DNA from: Escherichia phage EF1-1
Length of the DNA: 64,000 nucleotides
Sequence record: PQ571289
Strand: one strand, 5' to 3'
Shown: piece after piece, positions 28,438-46,335 of the stretch
How positions within the stretch are numbered: position 1 is the first letter of the stretch
Layout: the number at the start of each line of letters is the position of its first letter
Notes under the pieces: generated by a model
What the model saw: only the letters and a program-made list of their open reading frames with translations
What the model was told of the DNA's origin: nothing
Databases searched by the model: none
Program-made: the position numbers and the translations under genes

Positions 28438-28466
28438 TTGACAAACGTATCCTTCATATGTTAGGA
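28438..28466 (+). promoter_or_regulatory. sigma70-like promoter (ctaTTGACA, 18-nt spacer, TAGGAT)
   Basis: member of a repeated motif family; sits upstream of the tRNA region. Confidence 0.5.
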
Positions 28467-28676
28467 TACGTTCATCAAGTGTGGTAACAGGGTCGTTGAC
28501 TTTTGTTAAGAGGGGCTTGCACTGCGGTAGTGTTAGAGACTACTTCTTCAGAGGTTAGCTACCAAAGAGGAAAAGGAATAGTCTCGGCTCAAGAACTTTT
28601 ACGCTGAAAGTTGGGCTTGGTCTTAGAGAATGTAGCGGTTCTCTACAATCGTCAGCGTCTCTGTTACCACATTTAC

Positions 28677-28751
28677 GGCCCTGTAGCTCAATGGGAGAGC
28701 TGTCGGCTCATAACCGATAGGTAGCTGGATCGAAACCAGCCAGGGCCACCA
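28677..28751 (+). tRNA. tRNA-Met (anticodon CAT)
   Basis: hand-folded cloverleaf: acceptor GGCCCTG/CAGGGCC, anticodon loop CTCATAA, T-loop ATCGAAA, CCA encoded. Confidence 0.8.
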
Positions 28752-28753
28752 AC

Positions 28754-28828
28754 GTCTTTATGGTGTAATGGATAGCACAGGAGTCTTCTAAACTCTTAGT
28801 CAAGGTTCGATTCCTTGTAAAGACACCA
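28754..28828 (+). tRNA. tRNA-Arg (anticodon TCT)
   Basis: acceptor GTCTTTA/TAAAGAC, anticodon loop CTTCTAA, T-loop TTCGATT. Confidence 0.8.
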
Positions 28829-29025
28829 GAACATTTTAACATGAATTAGCTCAAGTGATTTGAACCCACTACTGATCATGGTGGCAGAGAATGAGGCAAG
28901 TATGTCAGACATTATAAACAAAGGCCACGGTTATATTAGAAGACATAAATGCTCGAAGAGCACCGTTCGTGGAGAACGGGGGTTGGTGGAGTCACCATTC
29001 ATGGTAAAATGTTTTAAAAAACTAT

Positions 29026-29055
29026 TGACAACAAACATTATTTTATGTTAGATTA
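29026..29055 (+). promoter_or_regulatory. sigma70-like promoter (ctaTTGACA, 18-nt spacer, TAGATT)
   Basis: same motif family. Confidence 0.5.
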
Positions 29056-29062
29056 TAAATAT

Positions 29063-29153
29063 GGAAGGGCAAATCGACGTGGCGACGAAAACGGTCTTGA
29101 AAACCGCCGAGCTTGAAAGAGCCTTGGGAGTTCGACTCTCCCTCCTTCCGCCA
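29063..29153 (+). tRNA. tRNA-Ser (anticodon TGA), type II
   Basis: acceptor GGAAGGG/TCCTTCC, anticodon loop CTTGAAA, long variable arm, T-loop TTCGACT. Confidence 0.75.
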
Positions 29154-29158
29154 GATTA

Positions 29159-29244
29159 GGTAGATTGGTGAAATGGTAGCCACGACAGTTTGCTAAACTG
29201 TAGTCGGAAACGGCGTGTAGGTTCGAGTCCTACATCTACCGCCA
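29159..29244 (+). tRNA. tRNA-Ser (anticodon GCT), type II
   Basis: acceptor GGTAGAT/ATCTACC, anticodon stem ACAGT/ACTGT with loop TTGCTAA, long variable arm. Confidence 0.75.
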
Positions 29245-29369
29245 AGTTGTTTTTAATGTAGCTTGCTACTCTTACTTTAATAGAGTAAACTTTCGGCAGA
29301 TGGCCTCCACCATCTTACCGATACCGCATAGTCAGTAAGGCGAATACTGGCTACTTTAAAAACAATTTT

Positions 29370-43465: not shown

Positions 43466-43473
43466 TAAATAAA

Positions 43474-43493
43474 GGGCAGAAATGCCCTTTTTA
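43474..43493 (+). terminator. rho-independent terminator (GGGCA-GAAA-TGCCC-TTTTT)
   Basis: perfect stem, GNRA-like loop, T run. Confidence 0.65.
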
Positions 43494-43510
43494 TCATTAG
43501 AGAGGAAAAT

Positions 43511-43993
43511 ATGTCACAAGAACAAGATAACACAATTCAAAAATATGCTCGACCAGAAGAAGTAGTTGAGATTCCGTTAGATGGAAACAGATCTGTTACT
43601 TTCCGTATTATAAAGTGGAGTCCATCTAAAGTGTTTGACAGGATTCCAGAATTGGGTAGTGTTCTGGTTGTTCCTATGACTATGTATAGCACAGCAACAA
43701 TGTCCGCAGACGAAGACCTTGAGTCACGTATTGCTATGGCACTGATCCAACTTTTTGCAGGTTTGGAAGAAAAGAATTTAACTGTCTTTTTGCGTAAAAT
43801 TTTAGATGAGGTTTATACTCAAGACGGTTATAACGTTGCAGAAAATTTTGATGAATTATTTATGGCTCACCCAGAACTAGTGTTAGATCTTACTGCTAAA
43901 GTTCTGGAGGTAAACTACGGCCCTTTTTTCAAACGAGGTTTCGGAAAACTGTTCACACAGCTTCAGGCGATGACGAGTTTAGCAGCAAATTAA
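43511..43993 (+). CDS. tail assembly chaperone (zero-frame product)
   Basis: 160 aa directly upstream of tape measure gene; contains slippery heptamer TTTTTTC at 43924-43930. Confidence 0.55.
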   Translation: MSQEQDNTIQKYARPEEVVEIPLDGNRSVTFRIIKWSPSKVFDRIPELGSVLVVPMTMYSTATMSADEDLESRIAMALIQLFAGLEEKNLTVFLRKILDEVYTQDGYNVAENFDELFMAHPELVLDLTAKVLEVNYGPFFKRGFGKLFTQLQAMTSLAAN

Positions 43994-44259
43994 CACCTGC
44001 GATTGAACATGCTATCGACACAGCAACGAAAACCCTTACTTTGAAGTGGTATGAGGTTATTCTTTGCAAAGTCGTTAAAGATACCTCGGAAACACTGAAA
44101 ACATTGGATAACTACGGTGTAGATTATCTTTTAAAACTATATGAGTATTTAACATACGAAGAGTATGTTGAAGCCATGTATGTTAAAGACACTTCAATAA
44201 AGAGAAAACATCAAAACCAGACAAATAAAATGTCAGATTTGTTTAAGAAACTTGTTTAA
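43511..44259 (+). CDS. tail assembly chaperone, predicted -1 frameshift fusion product
   Basis: -1 frame is open from 43900 to 44259; shift at T TTT TTC would join the two ORFs. Confidence 0.45.
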
Positions 44260-44279
44260 TCCAACACGAGGAACATACT

Positions 44280-46268
44280 TTGTTAGAAATTAACGCCTCC
44301 AAAATTAGTAACGTGGTTACGTTTAAGGTGGACAAGAACAGTCTCAAGGAAGCAAAAGATGCCGTGTTGAGTGTTCAGAAGTTTGCAAATAAAATGCAAC
44401 CCACTATGAACATGACCAAGTTTAGACAACAAATGAAAGAGATTGAGCGTGAACTTAAGAAAGCTCAAACTCAAAGTCAAAAACCTATGCGAGCACCTAC
44501 TCCCGCTGGAGCGGGTGCTCCTGTAGGTGGATCTGGCAGACCTAGAACTCCTAAAACCCCGCAAGGAAGAGAAGAAGAAAAAGCTCGTAAAGCGGCTGAA
44601 CGCGAAGCTAAAGCAGCAGCACGTAGGGAAGATTTAGGTAATCTTCGTTTGCAGAACTTTAACTACAGAGCAAAAGCATTTAGTAAAGCCAGTCCTGGTG
44701 CTATGCAAGAAGCTAGAGACGTTATGGGTAAAGCTGTAGAGCAATACAAAAAGGGTGAAATAACTCTTCAACGTATGAACCAAGCTCTTGCTCACCAGTT
44801 GGATGCTTTACGCAGATCTCATCGTGAAAAGAATGCTGAAATAGAAGACGAGGTTCGCGGTCGTCGCCGTATTCGTAGAGAGCTAGAAGCAGAAGCTAAA
44901 ATGCGTATACGTATGCGAAATCGTGAACTTAGAGATATAGAACGCAATCGTAAGCGTGAATTAGCTCAACAAAGACGTGACCGTGATCGTCGATATGGAC
45001 AATTAAAAGAAGGTGCGGCAGGTCTTAATCCACGCATGATTGCATCCTCTTTGATTGGTGCTGGGCTGTTTGCAGGTGGTTCTGTAGTTGGTAACACGTT
45101 GATGAATACTAACGAAAGAATTAAAATGGTTAGTCGCGGTGCTGAAAACGTCCAAACGAATGCTAACTCTATTTTAACAATGACCGCATGGGGTGAACAA
45201 AACGGTGTAGACTCGGCAAATATTATTAAAGCAATAGATAACATTAAAGACGTTCGTGAACGTCTAGGTAATACCATGATGAACACCAAGTGGAACGCAA
45301 AAGAAGGGAAATGGAAAGGTGGTGATAACGGTATTACTGATATTATGAATGCTTTTGGTTGGAACCCCGATCAAATAAAACATTTGCAAAATGACCCGTT
45401 AGCTTTTATCCAAGCCACTGTTAATGAAGGTGAACGTCGAGGTATGAACTCTGCTCAAATCGGGCGACTTCTTGAAAACCTTGGTGATGACCTTATGCAC
45501 TACCAACGCATGTTTAGTAAAAATGGCGAAGGCTACAATGAAACATTGAAAATGCTTCAAAGAACAGGTGCAACATTAACTCAAGAACAAATAGATGCTT
45601 CTAAGGAGTTTACTCGTTTTGCTGCAACAGTTCAGCTTGTAGGTCAAGGTATGCAGAACCATTTCTTAGAGGGTTTTGTGAAAGCCTTACCTAAAGATGA
45701 TTCTTGGTTGGATAACGTTAAAGTGCTAGATCAGTTTGCCAAAGATTTAGGTGAAGAACTTGGTAAAACAACAGTTCAACTTGGTGGTTTTGCTAAAGAA
45801 TTGGGGGATGGTTTCGGATCTTTTACCAATTGGCTTAAAGAAACATTCCCAGATACCTTCGGAGACAACACAGATCCTAATAAATCTATGGCACAAAAAG
45901 CATACGAGGCAACGCAAAGTGGAGACAGCAATCCTGTAGCAGATTGGTTGTACAATTTAACAGGTATTGATACACAAGACATTGGTCGTATGTGGAGAGG
46001 AGAGCAAACAAGGACACGTGCTTTTGGATTTGGTAATCCTCTTGAAGATTTACGTGAATCAGCCTATACACCTAACGTAAGTTTGGCTCGTAATCAACCT
46101 GTTGTTGAGAATACGGTAGCAATACCAAGTGATCTTATCAAAGTTACGATCAGCCCTTCTTCTGAGTTTGGAAATATTCTTGATGCAAGAATTCAAAATA
46201 GCGGAAATAGCATTTTCCAACGTTTATCTCTTTCAACTCTAAGTGGACAATCTAACACTGGTGGTTAA
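44280..46268 (+). CDS. tape measure protein
   Basis: 662 aa, coiled-coil-rich and Arg/Lys/Glu-rich N-terminal half, hydrophobic glycine-rich segment; TTG start from track. Confidence 0.7.
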   Translation: MLEINASKISNVVTFKVDKNSLKEAKDAVLSVQKFANKMQPTMNMTKFRQQMKEIERELKKAQTQSQKPMRAPTPAGAGAPVGGSGRPRTPKTPQGREEEKARKAAEREAKAAARREDLGNLRLQNFNYRAKAFSKASPGAMQEARDVMGKAVEQYKKGEITLQRMNQALAHQLDALRRSHREKNAEIEDEVRGRRRIRRELEAEAKMRIRMRNRELRDIERNRKRELAQQRRDRDRRYGQLKEGAAGLNPRMIASSLIGAGLFAGGSVVGNTLMNTNERIKMVSRGAENVQTNANSILTMTAWGEQNGVDSANIIKAIDNIKDVRERLGNTMMNTKWNAKEGKWKGGDNGITDIMNAFGWNPDQIKHLQNDPLAFIQATVNEGERRGMNSAQIGRLLENLGDDLMHYQRMFSKNGEGYNETLKMLQRTGATLTQEQIDASKEFTRFAATVQLVGQGMQNHFLEGFVKALPKDDSWLDNVKVLDQFAKDLGEELGKTTVQLGGFAKELGDGFGSFTNWLKETFPDTFGDNTDPNKSMAQKAYEATQSGDSNPVADWLYNLTGIDTQDIGRMWRGEQTRTRAFGFGNPLEDLRESAYTPNVSLARNQPVVENTVAIPSDLIKVTISPSSEFGNILDARIQNSGNSIFQRLSLSTLSGQSNTGG

Positions 46269-46275
46269 TAAAATA

Positions 46276-46297
46276 CCTCGCTTCGGCGGGGTTTTTT
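46276..46297 (+). terminator. rho-independent terminator (CCTCGC-TTCG-GCGGGG-TTTTTT)
   Basis: stem with one G-U pair, tetraloop, six Ts. Confidence 0.7.
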
Positions 46298-46305
46298 CGT
46301 TTCCC

Positions 46306-46335
46306 TTGACACGAAGTTTCTATATGTGTTACAAT
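46306..46335 (+). promoter_or_regulatory. sigma70-like promoter (TTGACA, 18-nt spacer, TACAAT)
   Basis: between tape measure terminator and baseplate genes. Confidence 0.5.

Follow-up and report, generated by a model that had tools for sequence, protein, structure and literature searches.

Sigma-70-type promoters predicted in the intergenic gaps of Escherichia phage EF1-1 and their recurrence in related phages

Short sites combining TTGAC(A/T), a spacer of 16–18 bp and TAnnnT were found in the intergenic gaps of Escherichia phage EF1-1, and these are very probably promoters recognized by the sigma-70 holoenzyme of the E. coli host. The stretch analysed, hereafter the window, comprises 64,000 nucleotides (nt) of sequence record PQ571289. 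A sequence-only reading had listed at least eight such sites on the plus strand and one on the minus strand, and had proposed that host sigma-70 recognizes them. This proposal was upheld: the family was enriched and intergenic, ran in the direction of the genes and kept its positions in divergent relatives, recognition itself being read from the sequence. The sequence pattern was established here, as were its enrichment, placement and positional conservation.

Over positions 27000–37000, the window shared 98% identity with Escherichia phage phAPEC8 and related phages (Phapecoctavirus, Stephanstirmvirinae). Leftward genes of nucleotide and DNA metabolism extend until ~27.2 kb, where a 480-bp divergent gap separates them from the rightward block. 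The latter begins with small open reading frames (ORFs), followed by eleven transfer RNA (tRNA) genes (28677–30586), the lysis genes, the terminase (32089–34164) and then the portal, head, tail and baseplate genes. The homologous stretch of the phAPEC8 reference record has annotated terminators and zero promoters.

The pattern TTGAC(A/T)-N16-19-TAnnnT was observed 33 times in the window compared with 10.1 ± 3.1 times in shuffled sequences. When the TGn extension was included, there were 11 matches where 0.71 were expected, and all 11 were on the local gene strand. The intergenic DNA, 6.9 kb in total, contained 11 matches, all in sense orientation and none antisense, where 1000 shuffles gave 0.6 for the two strands together and at most 5; with TGn the count was 7 compared with 0.04. 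For these comparisons, the shuffles were made from the intergenic DNA itself to control for its composition. TTGACA alone was not enriched in the window (58 compared with 58.6), and a relaxed scan accepting 9 of 12 consensus positions gave no excess over shuffles (45 compared with 48.6, and 44 compared with 47.9). The non-random part is the composite pattern together with its placement, and only the stringent composite pattern is informative.

The window was compared with phiWec190 (L004, ~80% DNA identity), VEcB (L005, Justusliebigvirus, 76%) and the Klebsiella phages phi1_175008 (L006, 75%) and FBKp34 (L007, 67%; portal 53%), together with 15 IMG/VR loci anchored on the portal gene; phAPEC8 itself is represented by L008 and L009. 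In the gaps between terminase and portal and between portal and protease, a promoter-like element was present in every relative examined, down to 51% portal identity. The terminase–portal element was found in L004–L007 and in IMG/VR loci L010–L023, mostly with the form TGTTAnnnT. Between the tape-measure gene and the next gene, three of four relatives had the element, and FBKp34 has essentially no gap there. At the heads of the tRNA sub-clusters and in the gaps ahead of two small genes, the number of relatives with the element varied by site, from one to three of four. In all of these gaps the element takes the form TTGAC(A/T)-N17/18-TAnnnT, mostly with TGn, and orthologous sites have the -10 box at an unchanged distance, while flanks drop to 36–50% identity (36–42% at 20–40 nt from the element). 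As chance would give a match only about every 12 kb of strand, this positional recurrence is independent evidence. The FBKp34 record independently carries a ‘promoter’ annotation in both the terminase–portal and portal–protease gaps. The alternative that the sites are chance matches in AT-rich intergenic DNA could draw on the lack of excess in the relaxed scan and on the 61% A+T content of the intergenic DNA; it is, however, refuted by the enrichment, by the intergenic shuffles, by the location of every intergenic match on the gene strand and by the recurrence in syntenic gaps of divergent relatives, and its remaining probability is negligible.

Six of the sites first listed (28438, 29979, 30744, 34168, 35860 and 46306) fit TTGAC(A/T), a 17–18-nt spacer and TAnnnT exactly. 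The site that had been placed at 29026 is likewise promoter-like, with its hexamer beginning one position earlier at 29025. At 31180, the 18-nt spacer and the extended -10 box TGaTAAGAT were correct; the -35 hexamer is TTGCAA (4 of 6 matches), not TTGAC(A/T). The count of at least eight plus-strand sites stands, since the intergenic sites 27392 and 27881 also fit. The minus-strand site at 12337..12364 (TTGACT-N16-TATAAT) was found as described, and beside it two further minus-strand intergenic sites, 15426–15454 and 17821–17849. Across the family, the -35 box is TTGACA or TTGACT at seven of the eight first-noted sites and at five further intergenic sites, and the spacer measures 17 or 18 bp in each of the eight, with 16 bp in 12337. 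The -10 box reads TAnnnT at every site, this being part of the search pattern, with 3–5 of 6 matches to TATAAT. The TG reported just upstream of the -10 box at several sites is a canonical TGn at 28438, 29025, 30744, 31180 and 46306, and also at 27392, 27881 and 17821; at 34168 and 35860 the TG directly abuts the hexamer. A location after terminators applied to 30744, 31180 and 46306, whereas a location between late genes did not apply to three of the eight sites, which belong to tRNA sub-clusters.

Those three sites lie on the plus strand. The putative promoter 28438..28467 (TTGACA-N18-TAGGAT with TGt, upstream aaataacta) is 8 nt past the stop of ORF 28116–28430. From a predicted start near 28474, it would transcribe a 203-nt structured leader, tRNA-Met and tRNA-Arg; its phiWec190 ortholog (L004 6027) keeps the -35 box and has TGtTAAGAT. 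At 29025..29054 (TTGACA-N18-TAGATT with TGt, upstream ttttaaaaaacta), a degenerate tRNA-like gene (29063–29149) begins 9 nt past the -10 box and is followed by tRNA-Ser, Tyr, Asn and Thr. Its orthologs at L004 6616 and L005 6157 both have the identical TGtTAGATT. The third site, 29979..30008 (TTGACA-N18-TATAGT, upstream aataaaacta), has 11 of 12 consensus matches, and tRNA-Gly begins at 30020, 12 nt past its -10 box, followed by Gln, Pro, Ile and Met. Orthologs were found at L004 7928, L005 7459 and L006 6425.

Downstream of the tRNA array on the same strand, the site 30744..30772 (TTGACT-N17-TAAGAT with TGt) lies 24 nt past a terminator (30702–30720) and 21 nt ahead of a small gene (30794–31090). 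The ortholog at L004 9243 is identical, and the same gap in L005 and L006 has TTTACA and a TGn -10 box. The site 31180..31209, with its weaker -35 box, N18 spacer and extended -10 box, is downstream of a hairpin and T-run at 31140–31168 (terminator 31140–31161) and upstream of a small gene, the spanin and the terminase block; in L004, L005 and L006, this gap keeps TTGCA or TTGCT plus TGATAAGAT or TGATATGAT. The site 34168..34196 (TTGACA-N17-TATTAT, 11 of 12 consensus matches) starts 4 nt past the terminase stop in a 101-nt gap ahead of the portal gene (GTG at 34266), and its spacer contains the perfect 12-bp palindrome CACTTTAAAGTG. The site 35860..35888 (TTGACA-N17-TAGACT) lies in the 93 nt that separate the portal gene from an XkdF-like protease gene and has an AT-rich tract upstream. 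The last of the series, 46306..46335 (TTGACA-N18-TACAAT with TGt), combines 11 of 12 matches with the TG and lies 13 nt past the tape-measure terminator (46275–46292), ahead of the baseplate and tail-fibre genes, with a 5′ leader hairpin at 46346–46364. Its orthologs are at L004 24798, L005 24870 and L006 24794.

Two additional plus-strand sites were found near the start of the rightward block. The site 27881..27909 (TTGACT-N17-TAAACT with TGc; orthologs L004 5456 and L005 4926) overlaps the end of ORF 27699–27884 and precedes ORF 27922–28173. The element at 27392..27450, the first rightward putative promoter of the 480-bp gap, consists of TTGACT-N18-TACCCT with TGc followed by the conserved box CGAGCGCAGCGAGT. 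The same composite element was present in L001, at L004 4984–5040 (+), at L008 20411–20467 (-) and at L009 38494–38550 (-). In this subtype, with its unusual -10 sequence TGnTACCCT, the conserved box CGAGCG(C/AT)AGCGAGT follows ~12 nt later, with divergence beyond it. Three copies of the TGnTACCCT subtype occur per phAPEC8-type genome, one of them antisense amid plus-strand genes, and they may be small-RNA promoters or a regulator-bound leader.

On the minus strand, 12337..12364 (upstream aaatagtta) is in a 65-nt gap past the thymidylate synthase gene, with a leader hairpin, GGGAGGA/TCCTCCC, downstream. The site 15426..15454 (TTGACA-N17-TATACT) lies immediately past a terminator (15479–15461). 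The third, 17821..17849 (TTGACT-N17-TATTAT with TGa), abuts the terminator hairpin 17820–17797 with its -10 box and therefore has its predicted start inside the 5′ arm of that hairpin. Separately, full matches with TGn were also found on the sense strand inside genes, at 3613–3641 (-), 20097–20125 (-), 51802–51831 (+) and 59789–59817 (+), compared with ~0.35 expected per strand. In three of these four, the 3′ end of the gene is no more than ~200 nt away, and the matches may act as internal promoters of the following gene.

From these features we infer recognition by the sigma-70 holoenzyme, the start sites, UP-element function and timing during infection. Each site has the sequence make-up of a strong sigma-70 promoter: a consensus or near-consensus -35 box (TTGACA or TTGACT), a 16–18-bp spacer, a TAnnnT -10 box, often strengthened by TGn (typically as TGTTAnnnT), and an A-rich tract at about -39 to -45 that would be contacted by the alpha subunit of the polymerase. 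Placed in short gaps, each faces the genes downstream. The sites 28438, 29025 and 29979 would head three sub-clusters of the tRNA array; 30744 and 31180 would restart transcription past terminators, ahead of the lysis and packaging genes; and 34168, 35860 and 46306 would restart it within the structural gene block. The leftward DNA-metabolism genes would be served by 12337, 15426 and 17821, and the start of the rightward unit by 27392 and 27881.

Several points weigh against this assignment. The literature search found no start-site mapping, transcriptome or in vitro transcription for Phapecoctavirus, Stephanstirmvirinae or Vequintavirus. The orthologous sites were found using the same pattern, so the 100% identity of their -35 boxes is partly circular. 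The -10 sequences TAGGAT, TAGATT, TAGACT and TACCCT are far from TATAAT and depend on TGn and the -35 box. Sigma-70-type promoters ahead of structural genes leave temporal control unexplained. Finally, the cores of 28438 and 35860 are inside conserved hairpins, for which an additional or different function could have been selected.

The sequence-only reading had also proposed a phage-specific extended element, based on four sites sharing the upstream sequence ctaTTGACA. The four copies were confirmed: exact copies of CTATTGACA are present in promoter context at 28435, 29022, 29976 and 35857, and a fifth, at 42056, is inside the tail-sheath gene without a -10 box. Recognition of (a)ctaTTGACAa as a single unit, by a phage factor or a phage-modified polymerase for instance, would define a phage-specific class marking late genes. 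This would fit the count of five copies where 0.81 were expected, four of them in promoter context, and the up to 18–23 nt that the three tRNA promoters share around the box, although 1 of 100 shuffles also reaches five. The three tRNA-cluster promoters have longer stretches in common (AAAACTATTGACAAC), and the cta box therefore mainly reflects their mutual similarity. In orthologous promoters the extension varies while the -35 box and the A-tract further upstream are kept. The cta of the window is replaced by gta in L004 at 28438; by gtg in L004 and tac in L005 at 29025; and by gta in L004–L006 and gtg in L007 at 35860. At 29979, L004 keeps cta, L005 has ctc and L006 has tgc; ggta is also among the junctions of orthologous promoters. 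Across the 32 intergenic promoter-like sites of the window and the rest of phAPEC8, C at -38 was found in 8 of 32, about background, T at -37 in 19 and A at -36 in 14, with TGn in 17 of the 32. Only four of 13 window promoters carry cta, three of the four copies would drive tRNAs and not late genes, and the box is absent from the late-gene sites 34168 (ttg), 46306 (ccc), 30744 (aac) and 31180 (tgc). The phage-specific element was therefore not sustained. A separate class of this kind is very unlikely, and cta is, on the sequences compared, not a separate recognition element but part of a variable junction between the A-tract and the -35 box. The A-tract itself was more consistent, with A at -39 to -45 making up 56% in intergenic sites compared with 43% in coding-sequence matches and 31% in background, and relatives carry AAAAnTTTTAAAAA-type tracts upstream of the -35 box. 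In E. coli promoters, A-richness at -39 to -45 fits the proximal region of the UP-element consensus, and the tract looks like a proximal UP element.

A different division of labour would leave the structural-region sites as early, constitutive low-level or accessory promoters, with the bulk of late transcription coming from a class unlike sigma-70 promoters or from read-through. For coliphage rV5, 33 sigma-70-like promoters were predicted genome-wide, 11 of them with an extended -10 box, and the authors concluded that a switch of the host polymerase to a different class of promoters may not take place; they additionally proposed a T4-late-like ‘late’ motif, TGGTAAAATA (TggTAaAAtA) (Kropinski et al. 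2013, PMC3606486, Table S4). Such a class would account for the late genes, ~33 kb in all, having only five promoters. The major-capsid terminator at 38982–39010 has no strong promoter after it, and read-through therefore probably feeds the genes at 39–46 kb. The rV5 ‘late’ motif is, however, itself an extended -10 box (TGnTAAAAT) and so not clearly a separate class. In the window, TGGTAAAAT occurred only once in non-coding DNA, at 29002, within the tRNA cluster. No extended -10-only motif was conserved in the late gaps, and the features that are conserved there across genera are sigma-70-type sites. Taken together, this division of labour is unlikely. Three specific classes were rejected as candidates. 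Many TGnTAnnnT sequences of an extended -10-only ‘late’ class were inside genes, none was conserved in late gaps, and TGTTAAGAT at 38972 is absent from relatives. The T4-type late or rV5 late motif (TATAAATA or TGGTAAAATA, without a -35 box) does not match the late-gap sites, which all keep TTGACA (TTGCAA at 31180). T4 middle promoters, which depend on MotA, have a MotA box of the TGCTT type centred at -30 instead of a -35 box, and the window sites have TTGACA or TTGACT at -35 and no TGCTT at -30.

The remaining alternative concerns the hairpins that overlap some of the sites. At 35870..35915 (+), a hairpin (-13.2 kcal/mol, z = -3.4) encloses the -10 box and predicted start of 35860; its 5′ arm is in the spacer and it extends to about +15, followed by a T-run. 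In relatives, the corresponding hairpin has -16 to -18 kcal/mol, and its arms covary, being TATCCT/AGGATA in most, TTCCTA/TAGGAA in L022 and AATACT/AGTATT in FBKp34. These sequences were folded one by one, as the MAFFT alignment had the 3′ arm out of register in the two most distant sequences. A stem of 12–16 bp and a GUUUUU run are conserved; the stem has only two G-C pairs, and the terminator scan made no call. The core of 28438 forms a palindrome, TTGACAAACGTATCCT/AGGATACGTTCATCAA (-16 kcal/mol, z = -4.5), with compensating changes in phiWec190. It was considered that some of the sites, especially 28438 and 35860, are conserved mainly as hairpins or palindromic operators (terminators, stabilizers of messenger RNA (mRNA) 3′ ends or sites for a dimeric regulator), their promoter likeness being secondary. 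This would explain why hairpins enclosing the -10 box beat shuffles, why their arms covary in relatives, why a T-run follows at 35860 and why the spacer of 34168 holds a perfect palindrome. Nevertheless, TTGACA and TAnnnT are invariant at fixed spacing though the arm sequences change, and the -35 box is outside the 35860 hairpin. Most members of the family are without such a hairpin, and the general enrichment of hairpins over promoter cores was slight (mean z of -1.1 compared with -0.4 for coding-sequence controls), mostly due to downstream leader hairpins. Both functions are also compatible within one compact gap, and a primarily structural role is unlikely. A palindromic operator for a regulator at the hairpin-overlapping promoters is possible. 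In a separate observation, the whole promoter of the tape-measure gap in phi1_175008 (L006 24775–24840) is in the loop of a 12-bp inverted repeat, TTGTACATCAGT/ACTGATGTACAA. The TATCCT motif in the spacers of 27881, 28438, 31180 and 35860 was rejected as a factor-binding box: relatives do not keep it at 31180, and the copies at 28438 and 35860 form the 5′ arms of hairpins.

With the sites taken as sigma-70-type promoters, the hairpins suggest that the terminator or 3′ stabilizer of an upstream transcript and the next promoter share one short gap. A transcript from the embedded promoter would lack the 5′ arm and hence not form the hairpin. We tentatively propose, with considerable doubt, that some sites are composite modules, with 35860 and 17821 (and similar sites in relatives) embedded in terminator-like hairpins and with a conserved 203-nt RNA as the first product of 28438. 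Upstream transcripts would then form the full hairpin and be stopped or stabilized, those starting at the embedded promoter would continue, and cleavage by RNase P at tRNA-Met would free the 203-nt RNA.

The 203-nt leader RNA (28474..28676, +) extends from the predicted start of 28438 to the 5′ end of tRNA-Met and has a minimum free energy of -76.8 kcal/mol (z = -5.9). It folds into a closed multi-branch structure in which a long terminal stem, an inverted repeat, pairs both ends. Relative to the phiWec190 copy (81% identical), 55 of the 76 base pairs are unchanged, 7–8 have one-sided changes, 6–8 have compensatory changes and 6 are broken. The element was found only in Phapecoctavirus, in 70 phage records, nearly all of which are without annotation there. 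It is a candidate stable non-coding RNA expected to be released by RNase P. Rfam searches of the tRNA region returned tRNAs only; none of the structured spacers, the 203-nt RNA included, matched 6S, Y-RNA or any other family.

Further structure was observed in the tRNA array. Most of the remaining long spacers of the array, at 28829–29015, 29245–29369, 29708–29800 and 30094–30191 (+), likewise have ends that pair in stems of 17–28 bp, with z values of -3.9, -5.4 and -5.2 for the first three. These spacers could be processing stems for RNase III, stable small RNAs or relics of mobile elements. The ‘species 1/2’ RNAs of the T4 tRNA cluster, which are stable small RNAs, offer an analogy. There are also apparent degenerate tRNA genes, uncalled by ARAGORN, at 29063–29149, 29546–29635 and 30430–30507 (+). 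The first scored 37 bits on the Rfam tRNA-Sec model, below the gathering score, and phiWec190 has a second tRNA-Ser there; the second folds like a tRNA remnant; and in the third, GGTTCGAATCC at 30479–30507 is a T-arm-like repeat. In the two Klebsiella relatives, a large protein is encoded beside the tRNA clusters (L006 3017–4447 and L007 894–2333), one being labelled ‘RNA-binding protein’ (476 aa) and the other ‘DUF2828’. We take DUF2828 to be related to Ro/TROVE proteins, which would make Y-RNA-like partners among the structured spacers worth seeking. No gene for such a large protein was found at 27–31 kb of the window.

The window sites resemble several known promoter systems. Like those E. 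coli sigma-70 promoters that have an UP element and an extended -10 box, they combine a TTGACA-like -35 box, a 16–18-bp spacer, TAnnnT and an A-rich tract at -39 to -45. The rrnB P1-type UP element was reportedly described by Estrem and colleagues in 1998/1999 and the ‘extended -10’ promoter class, it is said, by Barne and colleagues in 1997. As in that class, TG is present at -15/-14 in five of the eight first-noted sites. Unlike typical sigma-70 promoters of E. coli, the -10 box is often weak (TAGGAT, TAGATT, TAGACT or TACCCT) and the base after TG is mostly T, giving TGTTA. In rV5, as in the window, promoters are distributed across the genome, including the tRNA and structural regions, with A-rich sequence ahead of TTGACA (PtRNA, TTGACAAACTTTGCTTAACAGTGTAatAT; P075, TTGACAAAAATAATGTTACCTGATAagAT). 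However, rV5 belongs to another subfamily (Vequintavirinae), single sites could not be aligned, and TGGTAAAATA is not a feature of the late gaps of the window. For Certrevirus, the consensus AAAA(N3-4)TGTTGAC(N17-19)TATAAT was read as sigma-70 with an UP element (Buttimer et al. 2020, PMC7344957). It shares the A-tract and a two-base junction beginning with T before TTGAC, but there the junction is TG, not TA/cta, and the sites are in early and middle regions, while those of the window are also in tRNA and structural regions. Klebsiella phage vB_KpM_FBKp34 (MW394390) has annotated promoters in the same terminase–portal and portal–protease gaps and ahead of the terminase, with the sequences TTGACA-N17/18-TAATAT or TAAAAT, although portal identity is 53% and the gap sequences are otherwise unrelated.

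A further counterpart is in the same phage type. The phAPEC8 record contains five early ‘host dependent promoters (MEME)’ of the same form as the window sites, aaaaag-TA/TG-TTGACA ... TGnTAAnaT. In contrast to the window, where one of 11 sites has a 16-nt spacer, six of 10 do in this early class (Fisher p = 0.024), and the early class has a conserved leader hairpin, GTAGGGCGGCAATGGTGCCGC, downstream, which no window site has. These differences hint at promoter sub-classes, the numbers being small. The same hairpin is labelled in phAPEC8 as ‘putative promoter determined with PHIRE’ (L008 556–575, 937–956, 1787–1806 and 3202–3221; L009 47712–47731, 48351–48370 and 49240–49259). Sigma-70-type early promoters lie immediately upstream of it, so this hairpin is most likely a stem-loop of the transcribed 5′ leader, not a promoter.

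Two observations lie outside the promoter family. In the divergent gap (27217–27699), GTACT repeats are clustered at 27470–27500 and 27650–27670, forming the outer parts of a 56-nt inverted repeat with AT-rich direct repeats inside (AATAAATAATTATTA, three copies); the gap resembles a replication origin or a regulatory region. In addition, the records ‘Campylobacter phage B15/C3’ and ‘Pseudomonas phage PsgM04F’ closely matched this E. coli phage type. B15 was 98–100% identical to it, C3 had 76% identity over the terminase–portal region (Justusliebigvirus level) and PsgM04F ~81% across the 203-nt element, and the host labels of these records look doubtful.

The result adds unannotated members to a textbook promoter class that had been predicted before in related phages. 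Phapecoctavirus phages are in wide use as therapy candidates, and correct maps of promoters and terminators help to annotate and engineer them; the phAPEC8 reference record marks no promoters across this 64-kb region. If the composite modules are real, the 203-nt RNA could form, together with the remaining long-stem spacers around the tRNA genes, a new set of non-coding phage RNAs. That sigma-70-type promoters are kept ahead of packaging, head and baseplate genes throughout the subfamily supports the suggestion made for rV5 that there is no switch to a late promoter class.

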